This document shows positions 1,473 to 16,352 of a stretch of 16,352 nucleotides of DNA, piece after piece. The notes under the pieces were generated by a model, which had not been told where the DNA came from, did not search any database, and saw only the letters and a list, made by a program, of their open reading frames with translations. Numbering within the stretch: position 1 is the first letter of the stretch; each line of letters begins with the position of its first letter. Position numbers and translations under genes: made by a program. Origin of the DNA: a virus (taxonomy: Duplodnaviria > Heunggongvirae > Uroviricota > Caudoviricetes). The stretch lies in IMG/VR virus record IMGVR_UViG_2703718777_000029, positions 1-16,352 of that record. The stretch is one strand, 5' to 3'.

Positions 1473-2468
1473 TTACGCCAGTACGCCTATTGCCAGCGCA
1501 CGATCGATAAAACGAAATATCAGCTCCAGCTGGGAGCCATACTTCTCTTCAAATGTCACGGTATCCGCATGCAGCTCGTCGTGATGCTTTCTGCACAAAG
1601 GCAACACAAAGAGATCATGCGCTTTTGTACCCATTCCACCCTGACCGTGGCCTATCAGGTGGTGGGGATCATCAGCGGGCTTTCCACAACATGCGCACGG
1701 CTGCGTCTTAACCCAGCGCGTGTACTTTTCATTAACCCAGCGGCGACGTTTGGGGCGTAACATAAAAGACTCCGGCGACTCCGGATCCACTTTCAGCGCC
1801 AGCACCTTTTTCGCTTTATCCTGGATGATGCTGGTGGCAGGAACCGAAGGCACAAGGTCACTTTCCCGGGTGACAGACGGCACAACAGGCTTCGGTAATC
1901 TCAGTGCCTTACGGGCTGCACTTTCCGGTAAGGCATCCGCCAGGTCATTACGAATCAGCCACCAGCACAGTTCCGGCATTGTCACAACGTGACTGTCATC
2001 AAAACCGAGATCCCGACGCACAACAGACAACACCCAGCGGGCACAGTTATCCGTTGCCATTGATTCCAGCCGTTCCGTGAACTGATCGCGCAGCTGGTTA
2101 TCGCAGTGCCAGCACAGACGGATTGCACCCGGAGCGTGTCGCATTGTGGTCATGTTCTCGCTGTGCCAGTCGGAATGAAGCCACTGGCAGCCTTTTTCAC
2201 GAAGTAACCAGCTTTCAAGACATTCCACGCCACCAGCACGACGGATCACTGCCTCATTGCGGAACACGGCCCGAACGGAAGGATCATCCGCCAGCGGTTG
2301 TGATGCCGCCGGAACGGCACCACTAGCGAAAGATGAATAACGTTCCGGCTCAGGCTCCAGCAGGACACGCCCCTGCATAAACAGGGGCATCAGCTCTGAA
2401 CCTGGCCTGAACAATACGATCCCCATACGCGGGGCAATTTCAGGGGTCAGTAGTGCTCTCACGGTCAC
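1473..2468 (-). CDS. DUF968 (YdfU-like) protein with C-terminal Cys/His-rich HNH-like region, 331 aa from a GTG start
   Basis: C-terminus CACCGKPADDPHHLIGHGQGGMGTKAHDLFVLPLCRKHHDELHAD. The frame opens with GTG at 2468, one nt after the KilA-N stop; the first ATG is at 2426 with no clear SD, so the start is uncertain. Confidence 0.6.
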   Translation of the reverse strand: MTVRALLTPEIAPRMGIVLFRPGSELMPLFMQGRVLLEPEPERYSSFASGAVPAASQPLADDPSVRAVFRNEAVIRRAGGVECLESWLLREKGCQWLHSDWHSENMTTMRHAPGAIRLCWHCDNQLRDQFTERLESMATDNCARWVLSVVRRDLGFDDSHVVTMPELCWWLIRNDLADALPESAARKALRLPKPVVPSVTRESDLVPSVPATSIIQDKAKKVLALKVDPESPESFMLRPKRRRWVNEKYTRWVKTQPCACCGKPADDPHHLIGHGQGGMGTKAHDLFVLPLCRKHHDELHADTVTFEEKYGSQLELIFRFIDRALAIGVLA

Positions 2469-2469
2469 C

Positions 2470-3285
2470 TCAATGAACGGTATCGAGCAGCTTTAACAGC
2501 TCAGGGAATCGGGATTCGAAGAAATGCGGCTGCGTCTCGCGCGGATTTGCGGGACTGGTGATGTTCTTGCCGAACATGCAGCCTTTCGCCGTCAGCGACC
2601 AGAATTTTTTGATGTTGTTAATCCCGGTACGGCTGTATCGTTCGCGCTGCTCGACGATCCCCAGCTTCACCATCTGGTGATATGCCTGATTAGCCGTCAG
2701 GCGGATACCATACTGCTTCAGCAGTGCACTCAGCGACAGCGTAGGGCGGCTTGAACCATCTGGCGCATCAGCAGGTGCATCAATGGCATAGATCGGCATA
2801 AGTTCAGGAAGACCAGCTACCTTTGATAATTTCTGGTATGCACCAAGTTTCGAGGAGTTTGACAGATTTAGAGTCTTTGCTGCTGATTCAAGCAGAATGA
2901 CCCCGGATTTAATTTTGTCGGATGTGGTTTCTTCTGGTGATGAATTATGAAGCGCATCAAAAGTACGTATCACTTTTAAGCTGAATGCCGGGCTGATCCA
3001 CATTGCATATGCATAGACCAGCTCTTTACAGACATACGTCCCACCATTGCGCCCCTGAATGGTGATGACAGGAATACTACGGGAATCTCCCGTAGTTTCT
3101 TCTTCCAGTAATTCCACAAGAGCCTTCGTTTCAGGACGACGCATAAACTCGTGAACTTCCAGCGAACGGGAGGAGCGATTCTCACCAGCGGCAAGAAGAG
3201 CAGCTTTCTGAAGGTCGTTAAGACAGTAGTTAGATTCAAAGTACTGGCGCACAGAAACGCCATCAATTACAAGCAACTGATTCAT
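2470..3285 (-). CDS. KilA-N domain protein (putative antirepressor-like), 271 aa
   Basis: MNQLLVIDGVSVRQYFESNYCLNDL...ITIQGRNGGTYVCKELVYAYAMWISPAFSLKVIRTFD is a KilA-N-type N-terminal domain. ATG at 3285 is preceded by GGAGAA; the track ORF extends to 3381 but that extension lacks an RBS. Confidence 0.7.
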   Translation of the reverse strand: MNQLLVIDGVSVRQYFESNYCLNDLQKAALLAAGENRSSRSLEVHEFMRRPETKALVELLEEETTGDSRSIPVITIQGRNGGTYVCKELVYAYAMWISPAFSLKVIRTFDALHNSSPEETTSDKIKSGVILLESAAKTLNLSNSSKLGAYQKLSKVAGLPELMPIYAIDAPADAPDGSSRPTLSLSALLKQYGIRLTANQAYHQMVKLGIVEQRERYSRTGINNIKKFWSLTAKGCMFGKNITSPANPRETQPHFFESRFPELLKLLDTVH

Positions 3286-3371
3286 TGGTTTCTCCACAAA
3301 TTTCGGGACTGCACTCCCTTTTCGTTGATGCAAGATGAACTTACTGCGATTTTTAATAGTTATCAAGGATA

Positions 3372-3391
3372 CACTGTTCATAAATACAGTA
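3372..3391. promoter_or_regulatory. Candidate LexA (SOS) box upstream of the KilA-N gene
   Basis: cACTGTtcataaatACAGta contains the palindromic CTGT-N8-ACAG core (3374-3389) with an AT-rich centre; about 16 of 20 positions match the E. coli LexA consensus TACTGTATATATATACAGTA. Located in the 150-bp gap between rusA and the KilA-N gene. Confidence 0.5.
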
Positions 3392-3436
3392 TCTTTAACG
3401 AGGTAATACCCAAATTTAGGGTGTTGCTCAATTCCG

Positions 3437-3832
3437 TTACCGAGTTGCTAATTTGCAACTCGCTTTTTCGTACTTACTGATAGTGATCTCGACCTTCCCT
3501 TCCGGGATAACCGGTCCCCACTCCACCAGCATTCTTTTCACCTGACTGTCGTCTTCCCACACACCCGCGTGGGTCAGGGCGTCAAACAGCGCCTTGTTAT
3601 AGTTGTCCAGATCGCGGATCCGGTTATCCGGAGGAAACAACACGATCTCCACTGATGCAGGTGCCGACGTTGGTTTTGGCAGACGACGTAACTGCTCAAC
3701 TATTGCTGCACACGCCGCGCTCTGAAATTTTCGCCCCGCCTCGCTTATCAGGCTCTTACCAGCAAATGCCACTTTGTTGGGGTGTCGCCAGTACATGTTC
3801 ACGCTGGGCGGAAAAGGCAGTATTAGCTTCAT
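3437..3832 (-). CDS. rusA: Holliday junction resolvase RusA, 131 aa
   Basis: MKLILPFPPSVNMYWRH... and RDLDNYNKALFDALTHAGVWEDDSQV match the RusA signature (compare E. coli RusA LPWPPSNNRYYRH / [26 protein letters not shown]). Start ATG overlaps the Dam stop (ATGA at 3829-3832). Confidence 0.9.
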   Translation of the reverse strand: MKLILPFPPSVNMYWRHPNKVAFAGKSLISEAGRKFQSAACAAIVEQLRRLPKPTSAPASVEIVLFPPDNRIRDLDNYNKALFDALTHAGVWEDDSQVKRMLVEWGPVIPEGKVEITISKYEKASCKLATR

Positions 3833-4482
3833 GCCACCATCTCCCTGACCAGTTTTTCCGCCTGCTGGCGAACCTGCGCCAGAAATGCCTCACCACATGC
3901 CTCAAGTTCATCGCGCCCGATGTAGCTGATTGCCGGTCCCTTCCAGGTCTTGTCGAAAACAGCAATAGCACCAGCGAAGAAAGCACCTGTTGGCACCTGC
4001 TTTTCGTCTTTCGGGATAAACCAGGCAGGCAGTTCAAAACCAATACGCCCGCGAATAAAAGCAATATGATCTGCATCTTCCGGCCACCACACTTCGCTGG
4101 TGGCAGCTTTGATCAGGAAAACATAGCGCCCGCCTTTATCACGCATGGCACTGGCATGCTTCATGATGTAACGCATGCCGGTGATGTATTGCCCCTCATG
4201 CTGACTGGCGCGGCTGTACGGGGGATTGCCAAAGGCAGCACCTTTAAGCTCCGCAAGACGTTCTGACCAGTCATGCGCCAGCGCGTTGTCTTCCGCCGTG
4301 TAATACGCGGCACATTTGGCGTTATCACCGTCAGTGAACAGATCCAGAACAAACGGACCAAACAAGGTGTTAATTCCCCAGAAAATGTTGTCCGGCGTGC
4401 GCCACTGATCGCCCACTTCCTTCAGTTCATGGGCTGGTTTGTTCCGCAGTTCTACCAGCGCCTGGCAATATTTATTACTCAT
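3829..4482 (-). CDS. Phage DNA N6-adenine methyltransferase (Dam family), 217 aa
   Basis: NPPY catalytic motif (FGNPPYS) typical of N6-adenine methyltransferases; overall resemblance to phage orphan Dam methylases. Start ATG overlaps the stop of the upstream small ORF. Confidence 0.8.
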   Translation of the reverse strand: MSNKYCQALVELRNKPAHELKEVGDQWRTPDNIFWGINTLFGPFVLDLFTDGDNAKCAAYYTAEDNALAHDWSERLAELKGAAFGNPPYSRASQHEGQYITGMRYIMKHASAMRDKGGRYVFLIKAATSEVWWPEDADHIAFIRGRIGFELPAWFIPKDEKQVPTGAFFAGAIAVFDKTWKGPAISYIGRDELEACGEAFLAQVRQQAEKLVREMVA

Positions 4483-4574
4483 TAAGCCCCCACGTAAAAA
4501 GCATCCGCAATGTCTCCGGAAGTACAGCCCGGATGGGCTTCAATGAATTTCTGAACGTCATTTAACAGACTCAT
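4482..4574 (-). CDS. Unannotated small ORF, 30 aa (MSLLNDVQKFIEAHPGCTSGDIADAFYVGA), between the replication and Dam genes
   Basis: Hand-translated from the sequence. ATG at 4574 lies 2 nt after the O-like stop, preceded by AGGGGG; its TAA overlaps the Dam ATG (TAATG at 4480-4484). Below the ORF-track length cutoff. Confidence 0.4.
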   Translation of the reverse strand: MSLLNDVQKFIEAHPGCTSGDIADAFYVGA

Positions 4575-4576
4575 GA

Positions 4577-5407
4577 TCACCCCCTGAATCCTGCCGGGAT
4601 CTGGCTGTAGTCCACGTTGTCGTAACTGGCTTTGAAGTACGGGTCCTCACGTCCGGCTACAGATACCGCAGGAACTTCCCAGGATTCTTCGAAATGACGA
4701 TCCGGACCAAAGAACGTGACAGCCTGTTTCACAAATTGTGTGCCGCTGTTACCCATCGCAGATACCCAGCCCGCGTAGCGTTTCACACCTTCCAGCATGG
4801 TTTCGGGTTTTACCCCCTCATTCAAACGGGCTTTCCAGGCTTTGAAGGCTGCAGATTTTGAATTGCCACCAGCACGTTTGGGGTATGCCAGCCATGCCTG
4901 CTCAAACTCCGGAGAGTATTCCGGTCGGTTTGAACGAACTCGCACAGACTCATCAGCAGATGCACCAACAGCTATTGGTTCATTGACTGGTTCTTTGACT
5001 GGTTCTTTGACTGGTTCAAAAGAGTGACTGGTTCTGGGTGAATCTCCTGCACTACCCCCTGGTGCAACTCCTGCACTACCTGGTGAATTTGCTGCACCAG
5101 ATAGTGAATTATTTGCACTACCCCCTAGTGAATCTCCTGCACCATCCAGATGAAGGAGATAGATATTACTTGAGTTACCTTTTTCACCTTTCCGGGTGAC
5201 TTTTTTTACCAGCCCGGACTCACAAAGGGCCGCAATATGATTCATCACAGAACGTTTGCTAATCTCGCACTGGTCAGCAATATGCTGGTAGCTGGGCCAG
5301 CACTCGCCCTGATCGCTGGCATTATCAGCCAGCTTAATCAGAACCAGTTTTCGCAATGGATTTCCCACTCGAATTTTCATCGCTTTAACCATCAGCTCCA
5401 TACTCAT
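4577..5407 (-). CDS. Replication initiator (O-like) with N-terminal winged-HTH domain and internal repeat linker, 276 aa
   Basis: N-terminal LRKLVLIKLADNASDQGECWPSYQHIADQCEISKRSVMNHIAALCESGLVKK resembles phage replication-initiator HTH domains. Central low-complexity G/S/A-rich linker and EPVKEPVKEPV are encoded by DNA repeats. ATG at 5407 has a strong GGAGGTG RBS and overlaps the upstream stop (ATGA); the track start at 5446 is a TTG. Confidence 0.65.
   Translation of the reverse strand: MSMELMVKAMKIRVGNPLRKLVLIKLADNASDQGECWPSYQHIADQCEISKRSVMNHIAALCESGLVKKVTRKGEKGNSSNIYLLHLDGAGDSLGGSANNSLSGAANSPGSAGVAPGGSAGDSPRTSHSFEPVKEPVKEPVNEPIAVGASADESVRVRSNRPEYSPEFEQAWLAYPKRAGGNSKSAAFKAWKARLNEGVKPETMLEGVKRYAGWVSAMGNSGTQFVKQAVTFFGPDRHFEESWEVPAVSVAGREDPYFKASYDNVDYSQIPAGFRG
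4983..5145. repeat. Iteron-like direct repeats inside the O-like gene (candidate origin of replication)
   Basis: Three tandem copies of TTTGACTGGTTC (4982-5017) plus a fourth TGACTGGTTC (5025-5034), then about five degenerate ~24-bp repeats of the type GAATCTCCTGCACTACCCCCTGGT (5039-5145), followed by an AT-rich stretch. Analogous to lambda ori iterons embedded in O. Confidence 0.5.
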
Positions 5408-5628
5408 GCAGCACCTCCGAGATGCTTCATGTTTTTTCCGGAGCAAAAGGCTATAAGCGGCATACTGATGCGGTAATTACGGCCCAGCGGTTCACAAATC
5501 ACCTTCTGACATTCACGGTCAACCAGGCTAACACGTAGAACATGCCCTGCAGGTGTGGTGTACCACTGACCGGGGCGAGGACAACGGAAAGTCTGATTGG
5601 TAAACCGTTTGAAAATATTCCGGATCAT
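5404..5628 (-). CDS. Hypothetical small protein, 74 aa
   Basis: ATG at 5628 preceded by AAGGGGG and overlapping the Rha stop (ATGA); its stop overlaps the O-like ATG (ATGA). No recognisable domain. Confidence 0.5.
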   Translation of the reverse strand: MIRNIFKRFTNQTFRCPRPGQWYTTPAGHVLRVSLVDRECQKVICEPLGRNYRISMPLIAFCSGKNMKHLGGAA

Positions 5629-6773
5629 TTACGCCCCCTTACCTCTGAAGAGTTCAGCGACGAATGAATAAGACGGGCAAGAAATGCCGCATCGTTAATT
5701 CGGTCATACAGACTTACAGCCAGCGGTGATTCAACTTTTGCCAACATAGGATAAAGCTGCTGCAGCCAGACCTGATGAATTGATGAAATGTAGGAATAGA
5801 GAACGTTGGCGTTATGTGCAACGTCGCTCGGTACAGAGGGCTTTGAAAGCTGTTTCTCCATCTGGTTAAAGGCATTGATGTATGCCTCTTTGAACTGGGC
5901 AGCACGTTTACCAGTGAAACCCATAGCAAGAAACGCAAAGCCGTCGCGGGTTATTTGATAGCAAGGTAGTTTGCGGCCTGTGCAATCGGTGTAATCACTC
6001 ACCGAAAAATTGCGGGCAGTGAATGATGCGGAACATTCAAGCGTGCGGATCTTTTTCAGTACATCGTCATGACGTTTGGAGAAGAAGTTGGCAACAGCCA
6101 GGGATGAAGTAACAGCCTGACCATCAACGATGGCAATTTCAGGTTGAGTGAGGGTTGGGATCGTAGCCATGATGGCAGCCTCCGTTGACTGTGGAAAACT
6201 TCCACCACCGGAGCTGCGAAACTCACTGGTGGCAGACTGAACAGGGTTCGCAGTACCGGCGTCAACGGAGACCGGCGAGCCTTTCGGCTCCCCTGCCCAG
6301 CCCACCATAATTCTGGCGTGCGTGAGCGCGGACGATAAAAAAGACGCTGGCGCGTCGTATATCGCCGTTGACAATTCCGGGCTGCGACCCCCGGCACCCG
6401 CTTTATAAGGTGCCTGAACAGTGTAACGTCCCGGAATTCCAGAATCAATATGCTGGTGGTCCTTCACACTCAACAAAATCACGCCTGAATTTCCACAAAG
6501 GACTAAAGCACTCATGTGGGTAGTCTTTGCGAAGATAGATAACGCGCTGTGTTTCTGGCTCCCAACGAATAACATGAACATAAAGTCCTCTTCCGTCACG
6601 AAACCAGCGGTTAAGTTCCTGCACAACTCGCCCCCCACAGTCAGGTAAAGTTCTCTGTGGTTACTTACAGCCAGGTGATTTGGTAATCTGCATTCATGCC
6701 GTAACAACAGGTGTTCAGAGACGCTGACCACCAGCTGTTGCGACAAACGGTTATTTGCCGTTAAACTGTTCAT
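5625..6773 (-). CDS. Rha-family phage regulatory protein; Rha domain begins at the internal ATG at 6170 (181 aa), while the open frame continues upstream to 6773 (382 aa)
   Basis: MATIPTLTQPEIAIVDGQAVTSSLAVANFFSKRHDDVLKKIRTLE... is a typical Rha N-terminus, and the ATG at 6170 has GGAGG 8 nt upstream. The frame stays open for 201 further codons upstream to an ATG at 6773 that overlaps the CII-like stop (ATGA). The 6171-6773 portion has no recognised domain. Confidence 0.65.
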   Translation of the reverse strand: MNSLTANNRLSQQLVVSVSEHLLLRHECRLPNHLAVSNHRELYLTVGGELCRNLTAGFVTEEDFMFMLFVGSQKHSALSIFAKTTHMSALVLCGNSGVILLSVKDHQHIDSGIPGRYTVQAPYKAGAGGRSPELSTAIYDAPASFLSSALTHARIMVGWAGEPKGSPVSVDAGTANPVQSATSEFRSSGGGSFPQSTEAAIMATIPTLTQPEIAIVDGQAVTSSLAVANFFSKRHDDVLKKIRTLECSASFTARNFSVSDYTDCTGRKLPCYQITRDGFAFLAMGFTGKRAAQFKEAYINAFNQMEKQLSKPSVPSDVAHNANVLYSYISSIHQVWLQQLYPMLAKVESPLAVSLYDRINDAAFLARLIHSSLNSSEVRGRK

Positions 6774-7354
6774 GCGTTAGTTTCTCCACAACCAGAAGCA
6801 ATCGACGCCACGACGCCCGGAGCTGCACACTCGCGGGCGTTACTCTTTTCCGGTGCACAAAAAACACGAAATAACAGTGTTAAATGCTCCTGCCACTTCG
6901 CCATTACTTGGTAGCTGTTCTCTTCGATTTGCTCACGCTCAGCCTGGTCAATAACTCCATCAGCAGTTGCCTTGCGTAAGTACTGGGAATGCTTGCCAAT
7001 CCATTCTATTGACTCCATCAGCCGCTGATTAATGTCACCATTGTCAATGTCATCAATGACCACCAGCGGCACAAACACCCCATAACTACGACGGGCTATT
7101 GCATCTGTTACATGCCTGGTACCACTGGCATCCTGTAAAACCATGGCCCACTCAAGTGGAAAAATTTGATCCCCACCGCTACGCAGTCTGTTATGCAATT
7201 GATCTTTTGCTGGGGTGATATCATCAGATTTATACAAACCAAGAATTTCTGCTGCTTCCTCATAGCCATGAGGTAAATCAGCAATCGTTCTTCGTATTGC
7301 TGCCACCAGCCATGCTGGTTGTTTATCAACTTTCCATTCAGGTTCTTTACCCAC
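6770..7354 (-). CDS. CII-like / YdaT-family early regulator, 194 aa from a GTG start
   Basis: Second gene of the rightward early operon, directly after the Cro-like gene. GTG at 7354 is preceded by GAGGAA at 8-nt spacing. Family assignment is from position and weak sequence impression only. Confidence 0.45.
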   Translation of the reverse strand: MGKEPEWKVDKQPAWLVAAIRRTIADLPHGYEEAAEILGLYKSDDITPAKDQLHNRLRSGGDQIFPLEWAMVLQDASGTRHVTDAIARRSYGVFVPLVVIDDIDNGDINQRLMESIEWIGKHSQYLRKATADGVIDQAEREQIEENSYQVMAKWQEHLTLLFRVFCAPEKSNARECAAPGVVASIASGCGETNA

Positions 7355-7381
7355 GGTTAATTCCTCATTTCTGTGGTGTTT

Positions 7382-7579
7382 TTATGCCGCAGCACTGTTA
7401 GTCTTTTGATATAAAGACACGTCAACTTTCAGTTTCCCGTTAGTAATTTTTTCTAACTGGTACGCTCGGCCTTCAGGAATAATCTCAGGCCACTCTGAAA
7501 CAGACGGATGCTTAATACCTAGGGCTTCGGCGGTTTTACAAACTCCGCCGAAATAATTAATCACGTCGGATTTCCGCAT
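7382..7579 (-). CDS. Cro-like (YdaS-type) HTH DNA-binding protein, 65 aa
   Basis: Small HTH protein (GGVCKTAEALGIKHPSVSEWPEIIPEGRAYQLEKITNGKL) divergent from the CI-like repressor; GGGAGA RBS 7 nt upstream of the ATG. Confidence 0.75.
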   Translation of the reverse strand: MRKSDVINYFGGVCKTAEALGIKHPSVSEWPEIIPEGRAYQLEKITNGKLKVDVSLYQKTNSAAA

Positions 7580-7610
7580 TTCTGTCTCCCGTTAAATTAC
7601 GTTAAGCAGA

Positions 7611-7676
7611 AATGTAGGATATCCAACATACCAATGTCAAGAATCCTACATAGTCATGTGGTAGGATTGCCTACAT
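7611..7676. promoter_or_regulatory. Right operator/promoter region: three operator sites and a PR-like promoter
   Basis: Site 1 ATGTAGGATATCCAACAT (7612-7629) is a near-palindrome. Site 2 (7634-7651) and site 3 (7659-7676) share the half-site ATCC(T/A)ACAT. On the minus strand, TTGACA (7640..7635), 18-nt spacer, TACATT (7616..7611) overlaps site 1 and would drive cro. Confidence 0.6.
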
Positions 7677-8328
7677 GATGAACATGAGTGATCGTATTCG
7701 CCAAAGGCGAAAAGAACTGAACCTGACACAACAAGCACTGGCTGATTTGACTGGTGTGAACCGTGTCACGGTTACTGGATGGGAAAAGGACGACTACCAA
7801 CCAAATGGAGCCAACCTTCAAGCCCTAGCCAACGCACTTAAATGCGATCCTCTGTGGCTTGTTAGCGGAAAAGGCTCGCCTGAACCAAAGATAAATCTAA
7901 AACCTGAAATATTCGCAGTTAAAAAAGTCCCCCTCATCTCGTGGGTTCAGGCGGGTTCATGGACAATGACGGAGCCTGGTGTCAGGAAAGAAGATGCTGA
8001 AGAGTGGGTTTATACTACCGCCCTTGTATCAGAAATGGCATTTGCACTACGGGTCCGTGGTGATTCAATGACCAATCCCCTCGGCTCACCATCGATACCA
8101 GAAGGTTCTATCGTTATCGTAGAGCCAGATATTATTGATACAGAGTGTATTAACGGAAAAATCGTTGTTGCCCATATCAATGGTGGGCAAGAAGCGACAC
8201 TCAAAAAATTTGTTGAGGACTGGCCGAACAGGTATCTCGTCCCACTAAATCCTAACTATAAAACTATTGAATGCGGTGAGAACTGCAGAATAGTTGGTCT
8301 TGTCAAACAAGTAATAATGGATTTTTGA
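7675..8328 (+). CDS. CI-like prophage repressor (XRE-family HTH plus S24 LexA-like autopeptidase domain), 217 aa
   Basis: N-terminal HTH (LNLTQQALADLTGVNRVTVTGWE); C-terminal S24 peptidase signature with GDSM serine (RVRGDSMTNP) and a downstream lysine (EATLKKF). No SD before the ATG cluster at 7675/7678/7684, so the mRNA may be leaderless as for lambda cI. Confidence 0.85.
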   Translation: MMNMSDRIRQRRKELNLTQQALADLTGVNRVTVTGWEKDDYQPNGANLQALANALKCDPLWLVSGKGSPEPKINLKPEIFAVKKVPLISWVQAGSWTMTEPGVRKEDAEEWVYTTALVSEMAFALRVRGDSMTNPLGSPSIPEGSIVIVEPDIIDTECINGKIVVAHINGGQEATLKKFVEDWPNRYLVPLNPNYKTIECGENCRIVGLVKQVIMDF

Positions 8329-8350
8329 CACATCTTCCTCACTATCGCAA

Positions 8351-8375
8351 AACCGGGGTATCCCCGGTTTTTTTA
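8351..8375 (+). terminator. Intrinsic terminator after the cI-like gene (bidirectional shape)
   Basis: AACCGGGG-tat-CCCCGGTT hairpin followed by TTTTTTT and preceded by an A-run. Confidence 0.7.
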
Positions 8376-8390
8376 TGAGCCTATCTTTTT

Positions 8391-8444
8391 ATGTAGGATA
8401 ACCAACATAAACTCTTGACACTCACATGTTGGATATCCTACATT
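8391..8444 (+). promoter_or_regulatory. Left operator/promoter region: two operator sites and a PL-like promoter
   Basis: ATGTAGGATAACCAACAT (8391-8408) and ATGTTGGATATCCTACAT (8426-8443); the latter is the exact reverse complement of right-side site 1. TTGACA (8415-8420), 18-nt spacer, TACATT (8439-8444) mirrors the PR-like promoter. Confidence 0.6.
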
Positions 8445-8602
8445 TGTTTTTAGAGTTGTGGTGAATGCGCAGGCTGATGCGCGAAAGACATTGCAGCTAT
8501 TACGGAAAAGAGCTGTTCGGCGGGGCAATTAAATGCCCGTGAGAGTCTGAAATAACCGCAAGCCGGAGATCAGCACCGATCACCACAACAGCCACTGCTT
8601 TG

Positions 8603-8650
8603 GCGGTACCAGTTTGTACACTTGCTTCCGGCTGGTACCGCTCTTTTTAC
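8603..8650 (+). terminator. Terminator-like hairpin in the early-left leader (possible attenuator or end of a short leader RNA)
   Basis: Perfect 10-bp inverted repeat GCGGTACCAG (8603-8612) / CTGGTACCGC (8632-8641) with a 19-nt loop, followed by TCTTTTTAC. The sequence CGCTCTTTTTA spanning the 3' arm resembles a boxA element. Confidence 0.4.
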
Positions 8651-8785
8651 AAAACAGAGAAGAGCATCACCGGACGACGGGCTCATAACCCAATCCACCC
8701 GGGCGGCTGCCACCGCAGGTGTTCTTCTCTGTTTTGTGGAGAAACCAACCGACCTTGCAGGGTCGATATGATGAGGAGCAGCAAA

Positions 8786-9148
8786 ATGGCTAGCGAACGC
8801 AGTACTGATGTGCAGGCATTTATCGGGGAGTTGGACGGCGGCGTATTTGAAACCAAAATCGGCGCTGTTCTCAGTGAAGTCGCTTCCGGTGTGATGAACA
8901 CGAAAACCAAAGGTAAGGTCTCGCTCAACCTGGAAATCGAACCGTTTGATGAGAACCGTGTGAAAATCAAACACAAACTCTCATATGTTCGCCCGACTAA
9001 CCGCGGGAAAATTTCCGAAGAAGACACCACCGAAACGCCGATGTATGTCAATCGCGGTGGTCGCCTGACTATTCTGCAGGAAGACCAGGGACAATTACTG
9101 ACTCTTGCCGGTGAACCTGACGGAAAACTACGCGCAGCAGGTCATTAA
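8786..9148 (+). CDS. YfdP-like early protein, 120 aa
   Basis: ATG at 8786 preceded by AGGAG at 7-nt spacing; the upstream in-frame extension to 8600 in the track has no RBS and overlaps the leader hairpin. Size and position match CPS-53 YfdP as remembered. Confidence 0.55.
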   Translation: MASERSTDVQAFIGELDGGVFETKIGAVLSEVASGVMNTKTKGKVSLNLEIEPFDENRVKIKHKLSYVRPTNRGKISEEDTTETPMYVNRGGRLTILQEDQGQLLTLAGEPDGKLRAAGH

Positions 9149-9213
9149 TATCGTTCTTAATTAACTGATTATTTATCTCATCACTGAATATCTTTATATA
9201 GTGAGGACTTATT

Positions 9214-10038
9214 ATGTCTCAGAACTTAGACGCAACCGCAATTAATCAAATCCATGCCCTTATTTCTGCTCAGGGTGTTAATGAAATTATCAGTAAGATT
9301 GGTGCCGATGCTGTGGCATTGCCTGAGAATTTCCGCATTCATGATCTGGAAAAATTTAATTTAAATCGCTTCCGTTTCCGTGGTGCGCTTTCCACTGCCA
9401 GCATCGATGACTTTACCCGTTATTCTAAAGATCTTGCAGATGAAGGCACCCGCTGCTTTATCGATGCCGATAATATGCGTGCCGTCAGTGTGCTTAACCT
9501 GGGTACTATTGATGAACCAGGTCACGCAGATAACACCGCCACTCTCAAGCTAAAAAAGACAGCACCGTTTTCTGCTCTGTTGTCTGTTAATGGCGAGCGT
9601 AACTCCCAGAAGTCACTGGCAGAATGGATTGAAGACTGGGCCGACTACCTTGTGGGCTTTGATGCTAATGGTGACGCTATTCAGGCAACAAAAGCGGCTG
9701 CGGCTGTCCGTAAAATCACGATTGAAGCAAACCAGACCGCTGATTTTGAAGATAATGACTTCAGCGGCAAACGCTCCCTGATGGAGTCTGTCGAAGCGAA
9801 GACCAAAGATATTATGCCAGTGGCATTTGAATTTAAATGCGTTCCGTTTGAAGGTCTGAAAGAACGTCCATTTAAATTACGCCTCAGCATTATCACTGGC
9901 GATCGTCCTGTACTGGTTCTGCGCATTATTCAGCTGGAAGCAGTGCAGGAAGAAATGGCTAACGAATTTCGTGATCTGCTTGTTGAGAAATTCAAAGACA
10001 GCAAAGTAGAAACCTTTATTGGTACTTTCACCGCCTGA
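9214..10038 (+). CDS. DUF2303 (YfdQ-like) protein, 274 aa
   Basis: Length and overall character match E. coli CPS-53 YfdQ as remembered; GTGAGGA RBS 6 nt upstream of the ATG. Confidence 0.6.
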
Positions 10039-10050
10039 TTTCATTACTGC

Positions 10051-10072
10051 AAATGCCCCTGCGGGGGCATTT
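10051..10072 (+). terminator. Hairpin between the yfdQ-like and yfdR-like genes (weak terminator or attenuator candidate)
   Basis: AAATGCCCC-tgcg-GGGGCATTT, a 9-bp stem with a 4-nt loop; only a short T tract follows. Confidence 0.3.
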
Positions 10073-10165
10073 ATGGAAACGTAATTAACTCAATAATCGC
10101 CGGATGGTGAGGGCTTCCTTTTACCAGAATTCAGCGCGGTGCAGCGCATATACGTGGAGAACAAA

Positions 10166-10702
10166 ATGTCATTTATTAAAACTTTTTCCGGTAAGCATTT
10201 TTATTATGACAGGATAAATAAAGACGACATCGATATTAACGATATCGCGGTTTCCCTTTCAAATATCTGTCGCTTTGCCGGTCATCTTTCGCACTTCTAC
10301 AGCGTCGCCCAACATGCGGTTCTTTGCAGCCAGCTGGTACCGCAGGAATTTGCTTTTGAAGCGTTAATGCATGATGCAACAGAAGCGTATTGCCAGGACA
10401 TCCCCGCTCCACTGAAACGCCTTCTTCCTGACTATAAACAGATGGAAGAAAAAATAGACGCCGTAATCCGTGAGAAATACGGGTTACCCCCGGTTATGAG
10501 TACGCCCGTGAAATATGCCGATCTCATCATGCTGGCAACCGAACGCCGCGATCTCGGGCTTGATGATGGCTCTTTCTGGCCTGTACTGGAAGGCATCCCG
10601 GCAACAGAGATGTTCAACGTGATTCCACTGGCACCGGGCCATGCCTACGGGATGTTTATGGAACGTTTTAACGAGTTATCGGAGTTACGCAAATGCGCAT
10701 GA
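10166..10702 (+). CDS. HD-domain phosphohydrolase (YfdR-like 5'-deoxynucleotidase), 178 aa
   Basis: HD-domain His and His-Asp motifs (SVAQHAVLCSQ...LMHDATEAY). ATG at 10166 preceded by GGAG; the track GTG at 10139 has no RBS. Length matches E. coli YfdR. Confidence 0.7.
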   Translation: MSFIKTFSGKHFYYDRINKDDIDINDIAVSLSNICRFAGHLSHFYSVAQHAVLCSQLVPQEFAFEALMHDATEAYCQDIPAPLKRLLPDYKQMEEKIDAVIREKYGLPPVMSTPVKYADLIMLATERRDLGLDDGSFWPVLEGIPATEMFNVIPLAPGHAYGMFMERFNELSELRKCA

Positions 10703-11043
10703 ATGTTTTCGAAATGGAAGGGTTTCTTCGCGGGAAATGTGTACCGCGAGATCTGAAAGTGAATGAAACAAATGCTGAGTATCTGGTGCGTAAATTCGAT
10801 GAAGTACGTGCTGAGGCTCGCAACGAGGGTATTAACTATACCGCAAGCCGCCTTGCTGCTGCGTTCAATCACGGATTTATCAATAAGTCTTTACGTGAAG
10901 TTTTCGACGTTACACGCATGATTCTGTCAGCGAAAGATGAGTTGGCTAATGAACCGCACCCGATTGATGGTCTGTCCGGTGAATATGCGGAGAAATCCCT
11001 TGAAGAATGGGCGGAACAGATTCGCAAAGGAGGCAACCAGTGA
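10693..11043 (+). CDS. Hypothetical early protein, 116 aa
   Basis: ATG at 10693 with GGAG 8 nt upstream; overlaps the yfdR-like stop by 10 nt. No recognised domain. Confidence 0.5.
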   Translation: MRMNVFEMEGFLRGKCVPRDLKVNETNAEYLVRKFDEVRAEARNEGINYTASRLAAAFNHGFINKSLREVFDVTRMILSAKDELANEPHPIDGLSGEYAEKSLEEWAEQIRKGGNQ

Positions 11044-11684
11044 ATAACCGCTTTTACATGATGTGCTTGCGTGAAACTGTGGGTAATAACGCTTCATTCC
11101 ATTGCCATAACGGCAATGGTTACAGTTCTAATATCGATCGCGCTCATGTTTACACGCTGGAAGAAGCCCAAAAAGCCTGGAATTGTGGTCGAGATATCGA
11201 TCAGCCTGTTTGCGCTGATAGCGTGGATGCAATGGCTGTGTGGCACGTTGATTGCCAGTACATCCCTACAGAAAACCTGATTGAGCCAGATTGCACTGCG
11301 TATGTGGCCTACAAAAAAGGTAGCTGGAACGGCAACGATGTTTACTGGCTTCAACACGGTGGATTGCCAACAGATGACTTCAGTAAAGCGACCATCTTTA
11401 GCGTCGCCAACAAAAACGAACCAGGAATAGTTTGGTTGCCATTTTCCATTGCTGATTCAGCAAAGCGCCGGACGTTCAATATCAATAACTTTAACCGCAG
11501 AACAATGGTTCAGGGCGCAGGTTTGGTCATGCCTGACTGGTTGAAAAAGCAGAACAGAAGAAAGAAGTCGCGAAGCGGGAAGGTGCGTTGGAATTGTCCG
11601 CATTGCGGAAAAATCACCTGGCAGTACAACCCATATGATTTTGAAGGCTGTAGTGATTACAACTGTGAAGGATGGCGAGAATGA
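11040..11684 (+). CDS. Hypothetical Cys-rich protein with C-terminal zinc-ribbon-like CPHCG...C..C motif, about 214 aa from GTG
   Basis: GTG at 11040 has a perfect AGGAGG SD 7-8 nt upstream and overlaps the upstream stop (GTGA); the alternative ATG is at 11058. Confidence 0.45.
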   Translation: MNNRFYMMCLRETVGNNASFHCHNGNGYSSNIDRAHVYTLEEAQKAWNCGRDIDQPVCADSVDAMAVWHVDCQYIPTENLIEPDCTAYVAYKKGSWNGNDVYWLQHGGLPTDDFSKATIFSVANKNEPGIVWLPFSIADSAKRRTFNINNFNRRTMVQGAGLVMPDWLKKQNRRKKSRSGKVRWNCPHCGKITWQYNPYDFEGCSDYNCEGWRE

Positions 11685-12277
11685 CAATTGACTATCAGGC
11701 ACTGCGTGAAAAGGCAGAGAAAGCAACTAAAGGAAGCTACATCGTAGGGCATACATCTGTTAACCAGCACGGCAATTTAACAGGAGTTTTTGTTTGCCAA
11801 AAATGGAAAGGAGAACTCGGTGGCGTGATTGCGGAATGTCATGTTAACTGCCTGGTTGAAACAGATGTTCAGGCTTATGCAAACGCTGAATTTATTGCAG
11901 CTTTTAATCCAAATGTTGCGCTGACACTACTGGATGAACGGGAAAGAAATCAGCAATACATCAAATCACGCGACCAGGAGAACGAGGAAATTGCGCTAAC
12001 GGTTGGGAAGCTGCGAGTTGAGCTTGAGGAGACAAAATCAAAACTCAACGAGCAGCGTGAGTATTACGAAGGTGTTATCTCCGATGGGAACAAGCGTATT
12101 GCTGAACTGGAAGCGCGGGAAGTTCAATTACCGACTCGCTACGACCTTCGATATGGACACCCGATAAATGCAGATGAGCGACATGTCATGATACCTAAAG
12201 AAAATGGCAGTTGGCTTTACCTGATTGACCTAGAACACGCATTACGCGTCGCTGGCATTCGCATCAAAGGAGAGTGA
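11681..12277 (+). CDS. Ead/Ea22-like protein, 198 aa
   Basis: N-terminus MTIDYQALREKAEKATKGSY is the characteristic Ea22-like start, followed by a coiled-coil-like middle. ATG overlaps the upstream stop (ATGA at 11681-11684); the track start at 11672 adds three codons. Confidence 0.65.
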   Translation: MTIDYQALREKAEKATKGSYIVGHTSVNQHGNLTGVFVCQKWKGELGGVIAECHVNCLVETDVQAYANAEFIAAFNPNVALTLLDERERNQQYIKSRDQENEEIALTVGKLRVELEETKSKLNEQREYYEGVISDGNKRIAELEAREVQLPTRYDLRYGHPINADERHVMIPKENGSWLYLIDLEHALRVAGIRIKGE

Positions 12278-12278
12278 G

Positions 12279-12983
12279 ATGACCACTTTTACCGACAAAG
12301 AACTGATTAAAGAAATCAAAGAGCGCATAGGCAGCTTGGACGTTCGAGACAATATTGAGCGCCGTGCTTATGAAATTGCACTGGCATCGCTGGAAGAAGA
12401 TCCGGTTGCTTATATTTTCAAACATCCGGCCGGGAAATTATTCTGGGCTTTAACGGATGAAAGCAATAAAGAGCAAGCGGACGTTATTCCTGTTTATGCT
12501 GCCGCGCCTGCATCGGTTGTGCCGGATAATACATCAAAGCCTCTTGCTTATGCTTACAAAGAGCTTACGCCTGAGATTATGCGCAACCATTTAGCTGTAT
12601 TCGAGCGATATGGAATAGCCCCAAACGATAGCACTACCACAATTCAGGCACTGCGAATCGCGCTGGATGGTATAGAGCGGAGCGCCGCCATGCTTCAGGG
12701 TGCCAAACCTGTAAGCCAAACTTACAAGTTGAACGAGCTATCGGGCAACTCTCCGGTGACTCCGGATGGTTGGATAAGCTGTAGTGAGCGAATGCCGAAA
12801 AAGAATCAGAACGTACTTATTTCGGTGAATTTCGATAGTGATCTGGTTGAGCCGCTAATATGCTCCGCACGCTATACCGGAAGCACCTTTCGGCGCGGAG
12901 ATGCAACGATTAAGCCGGGTAATGGTATTGAGCAAGCAACTCACTGGATGCCGCTACCAGAACCGCCGCAGGAGGTAAAGTAA
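12279..12983 (+). CDS. DUF551 domain protein, 234 aa
   Basis: C-terminal DGWISCSERMPKKNQNVLISV...EQATHWMPLPEPPQ is typical of DUF551. GGAG RBS; start lies 2 nt after the upstream stop. Confidence 0.65.
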   Translation: MTTFTDKELIKEIKERIGSLDVRDNIERRAYEIALASLEEDPVAYIFKHPAGKLFWALTDESNKEQADVIPVYAAAPASVVPDNTSKPLAYAYKELTPEIMRNHLAVFERYGIAPNDSTTTIQALRIALDGIERSAAMLQGAKPVSQTYKLNELSGNSPVTPDGWISCSERMPKKNQNVLISVNFDSDLVEPLICSARYTGSTFRRGDATIKPGNGIEQATHWMPLPEPPQEVK

Positions 12984-13177
12984 TGAACAACTTAATGACA
13001 ACTAAACAAGTCGCCAACTTCTGTGGAGTTTCAGTATCGACAGTTCTTCGCTGGAACAGCGTAAACAGGAGAACTGGCCAGAAATACAGGCCTGACTTCC
13101 CAGATCCTGATATTAAATCCTGCCCAAATAAATGGGCATCACGCAAGATATACAGGTTTGCGGGAGTTATTGAGTAA
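12983..13177 (+). CDS. Excisionase-like (AlpA/Xis family) HTH protein, 64 aa
   Basis: HTH TTKQVANFCGVSVSTVLRW followed by FPDP...W, resembling lambda Xis and AlpA motifs. GGAGGT RBS; ATG overlaps the upstream TAA (TAATG). Last gene of the early-left operon before the integration module. Confidence 0.55.
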   Translation: MNNLMTTKQVANFCGVSVSTVLRWNSVNRRTGQKYRPDFPDPDIKSCPNKWASRKIYRFAGVIE

Positions 13178-13341
13178 TACGTATTCGTTCAGATGTGAGT
13201 TAACACATCTATGGCACAGAGCTAAACCTAATAAGACTGTCTACTCTGTGCCTGAAGTAGATGTTGCAAATACCACCAGCGAAGCACCAAAATTAATGGT
13301 GCAGGATGATGCAGATAATTCTGATGAAAACACCCAGAATT

Positions 13342-13350
13342 TGTTACAAT
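13342..13350 (+). promoter_or_regulatory. Candidate extended -10 promoter for the AT-rich membrane-protein gene
   Basis: TGtTACAAT (TG, one base, then TACAAT) about 60 nt upstream of the ATG at 13410; no convincing -35 element. Confidence 0.35.
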
Positions 13351-13409
13351 AAGTACATAGTATTAAAGTTTTTTATGAATGTCTAAATGTATCTTATTCA
13401 GAGGTGATA

Positions 13410-14957
13410 ATGGGTGCCAATGGTTTACTAGCAGTCTTCGCCATACTTATTGCTTGGTATACTCTCTTAACGGATGAGAGACGTGTTGATTTAAGGTTAC
13501 GCATATCTAAATTTAATTTAGTATTCATTATCTTTTTTATATCAACAATATTAACAGTTATATATTCTAAGGTTTTGCTAAGTGTTTTCCCGATAAAACC
13601 GATCCCTTGGATACTCGGTTTTAACGAAGATACATTGGCTTTTACTTGTCTTTGTATCATAATTATATTTTTTGGAATTAAAGTACAGGGCAAAATACTA
13701 CCAAAATCAAACCTTACCTGTTGGATCAGTGTTTCAGAAACATATCTGCGCGCAAAAAAAATAGAACAACTAGGATATCTTTTTGATAAATATCACGAGC
13801 AGCTATTCAATATAATCAGCAATAAAAAATGGTATGTTCGCGTACATAATTACTTAGCCCCTTCATTATCTCCCATTGAAATGGATGAAGAGAAGGTAAA
13901 AAAATTACGATTCAAAAAAGTCAGGAGATTTCTGTCAAAGTTTTTCCCTTATGAAGACAAAAGACAAAATGATATTCAATTAAATATATCCAATCTTCTG
14001 AAATCAAAGGTTTTTTCACATTATCTAATTGATACTTACCCTCACGTAGCTATGAAGGCCACCTGCTTACAGCTTAGATATAATTGTGAGTATAATACAA
14101 ATTTCTTTACGTATTTAATATCTAACCCAAACAGCATTATGTATAGGGAGTTACGAGACAACCAAAATCGTTCATATACAGGGGAGTATGCACTCGACGA
14201 AAGTAATGCCTTGCTTAATTTTTATTTAAATGATATTCGCATGGCGATAGATTTAGAAATATGGAAACCTGTGGGTAATTATGTCATTAGCTACATAAAA
14301 AAACAAAAAGGGAGTTCTTGCTTTTACAATCATCCAGATAATTACTATTCAAGTAGTGATGAGCGTTGGGAATGCCCACTCTTCGTTGGATTGACGTTTT
14401 TCGATGTTATGGTATCTACAGCAATATTCAAACGCTCAAAAAACAATATGTGGCTCATGTATTATCGTTGTTTCCTAAAGGAAATACTTGAGAGCTATGA
14501 AAAATCTAGCAGCATAGATGTAAATAGAGAGTTCCCCATGCGATTTGATTATTTAATATATGAGCTAATCAGCCGTTGTAATATATGGGCAGGAGCAACA
14601 GAACACCTCAATTATGATAACTGGACAACAGAAGATAAAGAGCAATCTCCAGAGTTCTTTGCCTCTAAAACCTTGGGGGAAATGATGTATCTGATTATTA
14701 CTTCAGAAAAAATGCATAACAATCAAAAGACATATCTTTTAGAAATCATTATTAAAAGAATGGACTCTCTTGATAAAAAGAAGAAATCTGCTTACTCCAA
14801 GGAAATCTTCAACAATCTTATCCGAGCATTCTCCCCTGCTTCCATTGATATAAATGCAGTAAATAAATTACGGCAACTTTATACAGGTGTTGATCATGTT
14901 CTAAAAAACAAAAATTCAACTTTTGAAGTTGAACTATCAAAATATCCTGACCAATAA
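13410..14957 (+). CDS. Hypothetical membrane-anchored protein, 515 aa (three N-terminal TM helices plus ~420-aa soluble domain); candidate defence or superinfection-exclusion moron
   Basis: ATG at 13410 preceded by GAGGTG; the track start at 13404 is a GTG. Hydrophobic segments LLAVFAILIAWYTLL, LVFIIFFISTILTVIYSKVLLSVF and LAFTCLCIIIIFFGI. The gene and its flanks are much more AT-rich than the rest of the window. No known domain recognised. Confidence 0.7.
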   Translation: MGANGLLAVFAILIAWYTLLTDERRVDLRLRISKFNLVFIIFFISTILTVIYSKVLLSVFPIKPIPWILGFNEDTLAFTCLCIIIIFFGIKVQGKILPKSNLTCWISVSETYLRAKKIEQLGYLFDKYHEQLFNIISNKKWYVRVHNYLAPSLSPIEMDEEKVKKLRFKKVRRFLSKFFPYEDKRQNDIQLNISNLLKSKVFSHYLIDTYPHVAMKATCLQLRYNCEYNTNFFTYLISNPNSIMYRELRDNQNRSYTGEYALDESNALLNFYLNDIRMAIDLEIWKPVGNYVISYIKKQKGSSCFYNHPDNYYSSSDERWECPLFVGLTFFDVMVSTAIFKRSKNNMWLMYYRCFLKEILESYEKSSSIDVNREFPMRFDYLIYELISRCNIWAGATEHLNYDNWTTEDKEQSPEFFASKTLGEMMYLIITSEKMHNNQKTYLLEIIIKRMDSLDKKKKSAYSKEIFNNLIRAFSPASIDINAVNKLRQLYTGVDHVLKNKNSTFEVELSKYPDQ

Positions 14958-15044
14958 TGATATATTTATCCATCACCTGCTTATATTGCAGGTGGTATCC
15001 TGAACCCAGTTGATCTATCAGTCAAAAAGTTAATCGTATAGCGT

Positions 15045-15096
15045 TCAAATATAAGAATAATGGCAGCTCTCGCTTTACGCTCAAAGCAGGCTGCCA
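15045..15096 (-). terminator. Candidate terminator between the convergent membrane-protein and integrase genes
   Basis: Inverted repeat TGGCAGC (15061-15067) / GCTGCCA (15090-15096) with internal GCTTT/AAAGC pairing, followed on the minus strand by a U-rich tract. A second hairpin CACCTGC-ttatatt-GCAGGTG lies at 14974-14994. Confidence 0.35.
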
Positions 15097-15128
15097 AATT
15101 TGATTACATACTGGCTGGGCATACTGTA

Positions 15129-16352
15129 TCAATTGGAGCATGAGTTAGTACAAGTAACAATCGATTCAACTCTCTCCCACCATGCCTGGTAGGCTTTACG
15201 CTGTTCTTCTAGATAATCGCTCTTATCATAAACTTGCCATACCCCTGGCAGTTTATGACCTAGCATTATTTCTGCAATATGAGGCTCAGTAAGATCAGAA
15301 AAGTTTGTTCGTGCTGTTCGTCTCAAATCATGAAGAGACCAATGAGGGAATTGATACCCCAAACGCCGCCATGCGTACTGCATTAAATTGTAAGGCAGCG
15401 ACTGCAATGATGTCCGACCAACGGGTTCCCTGCTTCCTTCCTTAGTAAAAAGCATATCGGAACCATTGTTCATAGAGATAGCGTACTTTATAAGCTCTTC
15501 AACCGGTTCAATAATGGGTCGCTTTAGCGGTTCGCCTGTTATCTCCCCAGTCTTATGTCGTTCTGGTGGTACAGTCCATACTTTATTAATGAAATCAAAA
15601 TCGTCCACCCGGGCAGTAATTAGCTCTGAACTACGGCAACCAAAATGCAGCAATAGTTTAATGAAGGCCCGGTATTTAGGAACCATTCGAGAACCATCGA
15701 TCGCAGCATAAAGGATTTTAATTTCATCATGTGTCAGAAACCGTTTCTTCTGACCTTTACGGATATCCATATCTTTACCCGTGATATCCGACAGCGGGCG
15801 AGTTTCAATGAGCTTTCTCTTATACGCCCAGACATGGGCCTGCTTTGCGTTAATTAGCAATCGGTCTGCTATTGCTGGAGTCTTAGTGCTAAGAGGCTCC
15901 AGGACCTCTAACCAATCATGCAATGTAGCTACATCGTGAGGGATACTCCCGATTTTAGAGAACAGGTGCAGTTCAAATGAGCGGAGTATCTGCTCAGAAC
16001 CTTTTTTATTTTTTACACAATATGCTGCATACCAGGCACGGATCACAGACTCCACCGTCATGGCTTCAGTAGCTTTGCGTTTTTCTACCTGCTTGACCAA
16101 TCGTGGATTGCGGTTTGACTCGAGTTCACCACGAAGACGGATAACTTCTTCTCTGGCCTCTTTTAATCCAGTTGCCGGGTAAGTTCCGATATCAAGACGC
16201 TCACCTTTCCCTGCCCATTGATAACGATATTGGAATACTACGCGACCTTTCGGTGATACTCTGACAGACAGACCATCACGATCGGATTTAACCAAAACCT
16301 TATCACGTTCCTTTCCAACGACTGAACGCAACCACGCATCAGACAGCGCCAT
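15129..16352 (-). CDS. int: Tyrosine recombinase / phage integrase (P4-type), 407 aa
   Basis: N-terminus MALSDAWLRS...GLSVRVSPKGRVVFQYRYQ matches P4-like integrase arm-binding domains. C-terminal catalytic signature includes HDLRRT (HxxR), GHKL...VYDKSDY (His and Tyr nucleophile). The ATG sits at the last three bases of the window, so promoter and att lie outside. Confidence 0.9.
   Translation of the reverse strand: MALSDAWLRSVVGKERDKVLVKSDRDGLSVRVSPKGRVVFQYRYQWAGKGERLDIGTYPATGLKEAREEVIRLRGELESNRNPRLVKQVEKRKATEAMTVESVIRAWYAAYCVKNKKGSEQILRSFELHLFSKIGSIPHDVATLHDWLEVLEPLSTKTPAIADRLLINAKQAHVWAYKRKLIETRPLSDITGKDMDIRKGQKKRFLTHDEIKILYAAIDGSRMVPKYRAFIKLLLHFGCRSSELITARVDDFDFINKVWTVPPERHKTGEITGEPLKRPIIEPVEELIKYAISMNNGSDMLFTKEGSREPVGRTSLQSLPYNLMQYAWRRLGYQFPHWSLHDLRRTARTNFSDLTEPHIAEIMLGHKLPGVWQVYDKSDYLEEQRKAYQAWWERVESIVTCTNSCSN

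Follow-up and report, generated by a model that had tools for sequence, protein, structure and literature searches.

The yfdPQR early-left cassette of a lambdoid Escherichia coli prophage: a conserved gene core, a structured leader RNA, and a proposed role in host replication takeover

We analyzed a 16,352-nt stretch of DNA from a virus of the Caudoviricetes (IMG/VR record IMGVR_UViG_2703718777_000029, positions 1–16,352; hereafter, "the window"), which is part of a lambdoid E. coli prophage, and focused on the genes that begin at position 8786 with yfdP. We read them as the yfdPQR early-left cassette of lambdoid phages and prophages, essentially the genes of the K-12 prophage CPS-53 with two accessory open reading frames (ORFs), attenuated in its leader and acting in host takeover at replication initiation. 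We hold this reading as a whole with about even confidence; for the proteins, host takeover at replication initiation is the best-supported function. The cassette is already named, annotated, and partly studied, as is evident from the 98–99% identity of its proteins to K-12 YfdPQR, its prevalence in E. coli, and the published work on the triad. New in this analysis are the invariant yfdP-yfdQ core, the variable cargo, the C4 ribbon of a 214-aa protein, and the architecture of the leader.

A known cassette and its proposed action on DnaA

The region from 8330 to 11700 showed 100% identity with prophages of several O157:H7 and other bovine and human isolates, and of 5426 complete E. coli genomes, 3335 contained parts of the cassette DNA, as did 180 phage records, many from Shiga toxin (Stx)-converting phages. 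The + strand of the window corresponds to the leftward direction of lambda. The gene boundaries given by RefSeq for an identical prophage agreed with those in the window (Table 1), down to the GTG at which the 214-aa ORF starts. An earlier reading of the same DNA, made from its letters alone (the original prediction), had described five ORFs behind a PL-like promoter, in the slot where lambda carries recombination genes; the coordinates, the gene identities, the promoter, and the slot were all correct. The 18-bp operator had six matches on both strands at ≤3 mismatches, against 0.01 expected, and a mirror-image twin of the PL-type promoter (7640–7611) drives cro.

Table 1. Features of the early-left region of the window and their positions
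Feature	Position	Strand	Remarks
cro	7579–7382	-	
Third operator copy	7612–7629		beside cro promoter
LexA/S24-type repressor	7675–8328		
cI terminator	8349–8375		hairpin, then U7
OL-type operators, two 18-bp near-palindromes	8391–8408 and 8426–8443		promoter sits between the copies
PL-type sigma-70 promoter, TTGACA-18-TACATT	8415–8444	+	10/12 matches; directly 3' of cI terminator
Leader, 335 nt	between PL-type promoter and yfdP	+	
STnc100/PasD-type small RNA body, 135 nt	8455–8589	+	own covariance model, 109 bits; consensus structure
Intrinsic terminator of small RNA unit	8602–8649	+	13-bp stem (8602–8642), then CUCUUUUU; -21.2 kcal/mol, z -4.4
Long leader hairpin	8644–8742	+	25-bp stem, branched tip; -49.2 kcal/mol, z -5.9
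Small GC hairpin	8750–8765	+	GC hairpin at same position in most genera
yfdP Shine-Dalgarno sequence, GAGGAG	8773–8778	+	
yfdP, 120 aa	8786–9148	+	99% identical to K-12 YfdP; PHROG 204
yfdQ, 274 aa, DUF2303	9214–10038	+	99% identical to K-12 YfdQ
yfdQ-yfdR hairpin	10051–10072	+	AAAUGCCCC-UGCG-GGGGCAUUU; -16.5 kcal/mol, z -4.2; weak U-tract
yfdR, 178 aa, HD domain	10166–10702	+	98% identical to K-12 YfdR
116-aa mosaic ORF	10693–11043	+	residues 1–42 match YfdS; remainder PHROG 614
214-aa ORF	11040 (GTG)–11684	+	PHROG 2457; AAAGGAGG just upstream of start
Ead/Ea22-like ORF	11672–12277	+	early-left operon remainder; Pfam/PHROG
DUF551 protein	12279–12983	+	early-left operon remainder; Pfam/PHROG
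Excisionase	12983–13177	+	early-left operon remainder; Pfam/PHROG

The functional evidence comes from the K-12 proteins. Overexpression and in vitro experiments have shown that YfdR binds domain I of DnaA via Phe46 and competes with DiaA and DnaB, and that multicopy yfdQ and yfdR, together with yfdS or yfdT, suppress over-initiation mutants and inhibit initiation at oriC in wild-type cells (PMC4776307, Noguchi and Katayama 2016). Combined with the layout of the window, these findings suggest the following sequence of events. In a lysogen, the cI-type repressor would keep the PL-type promoter shut, as the arrangement of the operators implies. On induction, transcription would start at approximately 8451, and its first product would be a structured RNA of the STnc100/PasD type, approximately 200 nt long and ending at its own terminator. 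Only polymerases that read through this terminator would pass the conserved 25-bp hairpin, probably a target of RNase III or of translational control, and then express yfdP, yfdQ, and yfdR. YfdR would then bind domain I of DnaA through Phe46 in competition with DiaA and DnaB and, with YfdQ and a third small protein, would lower initiation at oriC. By analogy with K-12, the same effect may occur during phage growth with the different third partners encoded in the window.

Several points weigh against this proposal. The original prediction had named control of host replication as one candidate role, and the published support for proteins 98–99% identical to those of the window speaks for it; however, that support comes from overexpression of genes of a cryptic prophage. 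Only multicopy plasmids produced the replication effect, deletion of yfdQRST had no phenotype, and the authors themselves allow for an artefact (PMC4776307). Moreover, the effect needed yfdS or yfdT, and the window has no YfdT and, of YfdS, only 42 residues. A DUF551 protein encoded downstream in the same operon might substitute functionally, since YfdS is reported to carry DUF551 (PMC4776307). The gene yfdP was dispensable for the effect (PMC4776307), yet yfdP-yfdQ is the most conserved unit of the cassette, and this pair has no yfdR beside it at 15 of the 71 species loci, nor in Xylella phage Usme. Therefore, inhibition of DnaA cannot be the primary role of the pair. Finally, the steps assigned to the leader are deduced from sequence and predicted folding. 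More than half of the complete E. coli genomes searched carry the cassette, as do many Stx-converting phages, and if the proposal holds during phage growth, a block of DnaA would constitute a second route to the shut-off of host initiation, alongside lambda P.

YfdR also invites an enzymatic reading, in which the cassette mainly reshapes the nucleotide pool, with YfdR as a 5'-deoxynucleotidase that diverts deoxyribonucleoside monophosphates (dNMPs) during phage growth. The yfdR ORF opens with a GTG at 10139, and the annotated start is the ATG at 10166, which has a Shine-Dalgarno sequence. The protein matched PHROG 318, "deoxyribonucleoside 5' monophosphate phosphatase," at an E-value of 3e-110, RefSeq applies the same label, and K-12 YfdR is annotated as a 5'-deoxynucleotidase. 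The metal-binding motif of the HD domain, read from the translation (H40, H69-D70, E73, and D78), is present within the part aligned to the YfbR-like profile, and the spacing of HD, E, and D is that of YfbR. In contrast, the match to the Pfam YfbR-like family PF12917 (E-value 1.5e-5) scored 25.2, below the cut-off of 25.9, and that to the NCBIfam equivalog NF003009 scored 20.5, far under the cut-off of 122. The nearest solved relative was the uncharacterized Atu1052 (2gz4, E-value 3e-14), with YfbR itself at an E-value of only 0.88. In addition, the affinity of YfdR for nucleotides is much lower than that of YfbR, and its function has been called elusive (PMC4776307). The destruction of dNMPs is counter-intuitive for a replicating phage, and YfdP and YfdQ would be left unexplained. 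We consider this reading improbable; of the earlier suggestion of nucleotide-pool manipulation, what stands is the presence of the HD catalytic residues, against which the low affinity must be set.

The yfdP-yfdQ core and its variable companions

The gene company of the cassette was tallied in two sets, one comprising 65 viral contigs of E. coli that extend at least 2.6 kb downstream of yfdQ, and the other of 71 loci from a collection with one genome per species. In the viral contigs, yfdP, yfdQ, and yfdR were each present in all 65, the full 116-aa ORF in six, and the 214-aa ORF in two; a further 48 contigs had only the N-terminus of the 116-aa ORF. The species loci contained yfdP in 67 cases, yfdQ in 68, yfdR in 56, the full 116-aa ORF in one, and the 214-aa ORF in none. 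The order P-Q-R on one strand was found in 65/65 viral contigs and 56/71 species loci. The original prediction had treated the five ORFs as one module, but only yfdP, yfdQ, and yfdR travel together, and the last two ORFs lie outside the conserved cassette.

Among the species loci, yfdP was immediately upstream of yfdQ in 67 of the 71, including that of Hahella (41% identity). The pair also occurred, at 39–40% identity and without yfdR, in phages of Xanthomonas and Xylella; in Xylella phage Usme, it lies in the early operon directly upstream of genes for the Erf annealing protein, the YqaJ exonuclease, and the single-stranded DNA-binding protein SSB. On the strength of these tallies and phages, yfdP-yfdQ forms the conserved core of the cassette and yfdR is a frequent enterobacterial companion. 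YfdP and YfdQ constitute an older, self-standing pair.

YfdQ matched the Pfam family DUF2303 over its full length (309.7 bits; cut-off, 26.6). The precomputed annotation of the protein database assigns YfdP homologues to Pfam PF27127; our local copy of Pfam gave no match for YfdP, so that the family appears to be a recent addition to Pfam. In the PDB, entry 9o7m ("YfdQ Protein") contains 36 chains of one sequence, which the YfdQ of the window matched at an E-value of 1e-44. A protein of Xanthomonas phage MET23-P3 shares 98.8% identity with this sequence, and the source of the structure is probably a Xanthomonas or Xylella phage. YfdP, YfdR, and DnaA were not found among the 9o7m chains. The model of YfdQ had no informative fold neighbor among the solved structures in the libraries searched, of which the Foldseek PDB library did not hold 9o7m. 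A more novel reading, which we hold as possible and short of probable, is that an early phage system made up of YfdP and YfdQ is distributed from Enterobacterales to Xanthomonas phages, with a fold unseen in the solved structures searched and a large homo-oligomeric assembly, with an undescribed role in phage DNA metabolism or host takeover, and with its expression gated by an undescribed composite RNA leader that joins an STnc100/PasD-class RNA unit to a covarying 25-bp hairpin.

A rival reading would have YfdP-YfdQ act early on phage or host DNA as a stand-alone higher-order assembly, for example by coating or organizing DNA or intermediates of replication or recombination, with YfdR as an enterobacterial addition and the effect on DnaA as secondary. 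The adjacency of the two genes down to 41% identity, their position directly upstream of Erf, YqaJ, and SSB without yfdR in the Xanthomonas/Xylella phages, the 36 chains of 9o7m, and published notes that K-12 yfdQ mutants are sensitive to methyl methanesulfonate and H2O2 all agree with such a role. However, Pfam, NCBIfam, the function labels of PHROG, and the fold search pointed to no nucleic-acid-binding or enzymatic family, and tight binding of YfdQRST to oriC was not seen in vitro (PMC4776307). We regard this reading as rather unlikely.

The company of Erf, YqaJ, and SSB also bears on the notion that YfdPQR is an unrecognized homologous-recombination module that replaces Exo/Bet/Gam in a phage lacking Rec genes. 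The cassette occupies the Rec slot of lambda, Pfam and PHROG revealed no known recombinase in the early-left operon of the window, and the window is rich in Chi sites, as are Rec-less lambdoid phages. Nevertheless, no cassette protein matched a Rec-module family (single-strand annealing protein, exonuclease, anti-RecBCD, or SSB) in Pfam, PHROG, or NCBIfam, and the YfdQ model did not resemble Rad52-, RecT-, or Erf-type proteins in its fold. A 2025 survey found the yfdPQR triad to be common in lambdoid early-left operons and judged a role in recombination unlikely (PMC12315714); the triad is neither restricted to Rec-less phages nor universal in them, as it is carried by phages whose Rec module is complete (ArgO145) but not by every Rec-less phage (PMC12315714). 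Our finding that the P-Q pair coexists with Erf, YqaJ, and SSB in Usme agrees with this judgement. This notion is largely refuted by the co-occurrence with full Rec modules, and we consider it extremely unlikely.

The 116-aa and 214-aa ORFs are variable, interchangeable cargo. The similarity of the former to YfdS was limited to the first 42 residues, and no relationship of the latter to YfdT was detected. The 214-aa protein consists of a conserved N-terminal domain, a basic linker, and a predicted C-terminal zinc ribbon of the form CPxCG-x14-C-x4-C. Among 26 sequences of 50–79% identity, C186, C189, and C204 were invariant and C209 was present in at least 90%; these C-terminal four are the only conserved cysteines. 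Accordingly, the earlier description of a Cys-rich zinc-ribbon protein starting at a GTG holds for the start codon and the C4 ribbon, but not for cysteines elsewhere in the protein. The model of this protein had no fold neighbor among the solved structures in the libraries searched.

A predicted composite leader RNA upstream of yfdP

The RNA from 8450 to 8800 folded far better than shuffled sequences (z -5.7), and the hairpins that the original prediction had placed in the leader and at 10051–10072 are both real (z -5.7 and -4.2, respectively). The first element of the leader is the body of a putative small RNA (sRNA) of the STnc100/PasD type, with a 9-bp closing stem (GUUGUGGUG/CACCACAAC), a 5' hairpin (8467–8482), a middle that varies, and, directly against the closing stem, a 3' hairpin. 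G-U substitutions in this stem are compatible with the + strand only. In searching for further copies, a loose regular-expression scan proved too noisy and was replaced with a covariance model built from the window variant. Rfam STnc100 (RF02076) gave no match in the window (8300–8900) up to an E-value of 10. It did match an alternative variant at the same position in other phages, at 42.4 bits (35.1 in ST64B), as well as the third copy in phage JL22 (34.4 bits), and in related copies the match takes in the terminator; all of these scores (34.4–42.4 bits) are below the gathering score of 47. Conversely, our own model recovered the Rfam STnc100 sites end to end, with E-values of 1e-5 to 1e-4.

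The ends of this unit, combined with different middles, were found in several genera, in the PL leaders of prophages that carry yfdPQ, and also in Escherichia phage ZCEC13 (genus Jedunavirus). P1-like phage JL22 (locus L154) contains three tandem units of the STnc100/PasD type (2501–2635, 2930–3031, and 3191–3314) just 3' of tRNA-Asn and tRNA-Thr. The middles of the JL22 units differ, and the units are antisense to the annotated "plp" and gp76, two small ORFs that may have been called spuriously over an array of RNA genes. At a Proteus terrae locus (L135, 6337–6442), the 5' hairpin and the middle have been swapped for tRNA-like D- and T-loop sequence (AGCUCAACGGUAGAGC ... GGGUUCGAAUCCC), with the closing stem and the 3' hairpin retained.

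Four other interpretations of the leader were considered and set aside. A CACAACA motif in the leader had suggested an anti-sRNA of the AgvB type; AgvB, however, is an RNA of 51–60 nt downstream of PR'. An antiterminator RNA of the HK022 put type had no sequence motif in common between the leader and the PL/PR region of HK022, in a comparison made mainly by sequence. ARAGORN found no tRNA or transfer-messenger RNA in the window, and the tRNA-like layout of the sRNA body is a resemblance only. For pairing of the variable middle with the leader downstream of it, the energies of cognate duplexes were no better than those of non-cognate duplexes.

The terminator of the sRNA unit probably serves as an attenuator ahead of yfdP, and the U-run at its end is included in the 5' arm of the long leader hairpin. 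Of 67 distinct leaders, 46 contained a near-perfect helix of ≥15 bp that ended 30–57 nt before the yfdP start; in shuffled controls, the median was 11 and the maximum 16. This helix is built from at least 10 unrelated stem sequences in Yersinia, Proteus, Xenorhabdus, Serratia, Morganella, and others, indicating strong compensatory covariation. The 3' arm of the hairpin includes the box UGUGGAGAAAC (8734–8745), and a box of the form (U)GUGGAG(A/U)AA occurs in this arm, at a fixed distance from the yfdP start codon, in approximately 55 of 66 leaders. The motif (U)GUGGAG(A/U)A recurs in the window and in many genera (loci L110, L114, L122, L136, and others): besides forming the 3' end of the long leader hairpin approximately 50 nt before yfdP, it is the Shine-Dalgarno region of yfdR (10152–10159 in the window). 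In Proteus leaders, the GUGGAG motif is repeated three times at a spacing of 13 nt.

In the intergenic region between yfdQ and yfdR, compensatory changes across other genera (44 distinct intergenic regions) preserve the pairing of the stem at 10051–10072, which could be a partial terminator or a hairpin that stabilizes the transcript. The earlier suggestion of internal attenuation thus gains support beyond what it claimed, with a putative intrinsic terminator at 8602–8649 and covarying hairpins both in the leader and between yfdQ and yfdR. The architecture of the leader points to a second use for prophage sRNAs of the abundant STnc100/PasD class, as the first, attenuated part of an early operon, which would link sRNA production to prophage induction.

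Neighboring genes and comparison with known systems

Beyond the excisionase gene, the gap before the integrase gene contains a 517-aa ORF (13404–14957, +) of 30–34% GC, whose sole match was PHROG 13820; no match was found in Pfam or PADLOC. In the otherwise identical prophage of strain NE122, a gene of the dGTPase family occupies the same gap. Because the NE122 gap differs in content from that of the window, the gap is suggested to be a hot spot for cargo or defense genes. Such variable, low-GC cargo in the neighborhood, and the fact that the cassette genes are the first to be expressed from PL in an accessory region rich in mosaic ORFs, would suit a reading of the cassette as counter-defense factors that shield the incoming or induced phage from host immunity. 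However, the eight proteins of the operon had no PADLOC-DB match at E-values up to 0.01 and belonged to no named anti-defense family in Pfam or PHROG, and the triad is highly conserved rather than diversifying. The anti-defense role offered in the original prediction has therefore gained nothing from these searches, and we regard it as very unlikely.

Two further RNA matches were observed on the - strand, namely Rfam C4 antisense RNA (6225–6312, 78.8 bits) and isrK (6337–6413, 56.9 bits), both above their gathering scores. They fall within a 382-aa ORF (5625–6773) annotated as Rha family, in its segment matched by Pfam Phage_ASH (residues 117–212). Either the ORF is coding throughout and contains these RNAs, or its upstream portion is untranslated.

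The closest relative of the cassette is the yfdPQRST cluster of K-12 CPS-53/KplE1, which shares with the window the P-Q-R order, the spacing, and the yfdQ-yfdR hairpin, at 99%, 99%, and 98% identity of the three proteins. From the CPS-53 copy, the repressor, PL, and the entire leader are missing, and upstream of yfdP only the last 34 nt match the window. In the window, YfdS is replaced with a chimera with 42 residues in common and YfdT with the unrelated 214-aa zinc-ribbon protein. Phages LLS, ST64B, and phiNP (PMC12315714) resemble the window in having the triad directly downstream of the repressor and PL, an early-left operon without a Rec module, and abundant Chi. Nevertheless, the triad proteins are only approximately 76–90% identical among these three phages, and the immunity region and distal cargo of the window differ from theirs. 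The window contains 11 Chi sites (GCTGGTGG) in 16 kb, against 0.45 expected from shuffled sequences, eight of them on the - strand (here, the rightward strand of lambda); they span 1830–13280, with none between 7311 and 13272. Within the limits of the 16-kb window, this Chi richness and the absence of Rec genes from the early-left operon fit the Chi-rich, Rec-less "LLS type" (PMC12315714).

For the leader, a 2026 preprint relates STnc100 to the PasD sRNAs (bioRxiv 10.64898/2026.05.13.724894). Like these RNAs, the unit in the window has a closing stem (GUGGUGAAU...CACCAC) and both a 5' and a 3' hairpin, the latter directly against the stem, followed by an intrinsic terminator; unlike the published copies, which lie near Q, lysis, or stx genes, it is located in a PL leader. 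The leader of lambda N contains nutL and a structure upstream of N that is processed by RNase III. Both leaders are long and structured, extend from PL to the first gene, and include a duplex long enough for RNase III. The leader of the window differs from that of lambda N in having no N-like ORF and no recognizable boxA or boxB, and in that its first element is a terminated sRNA unit.

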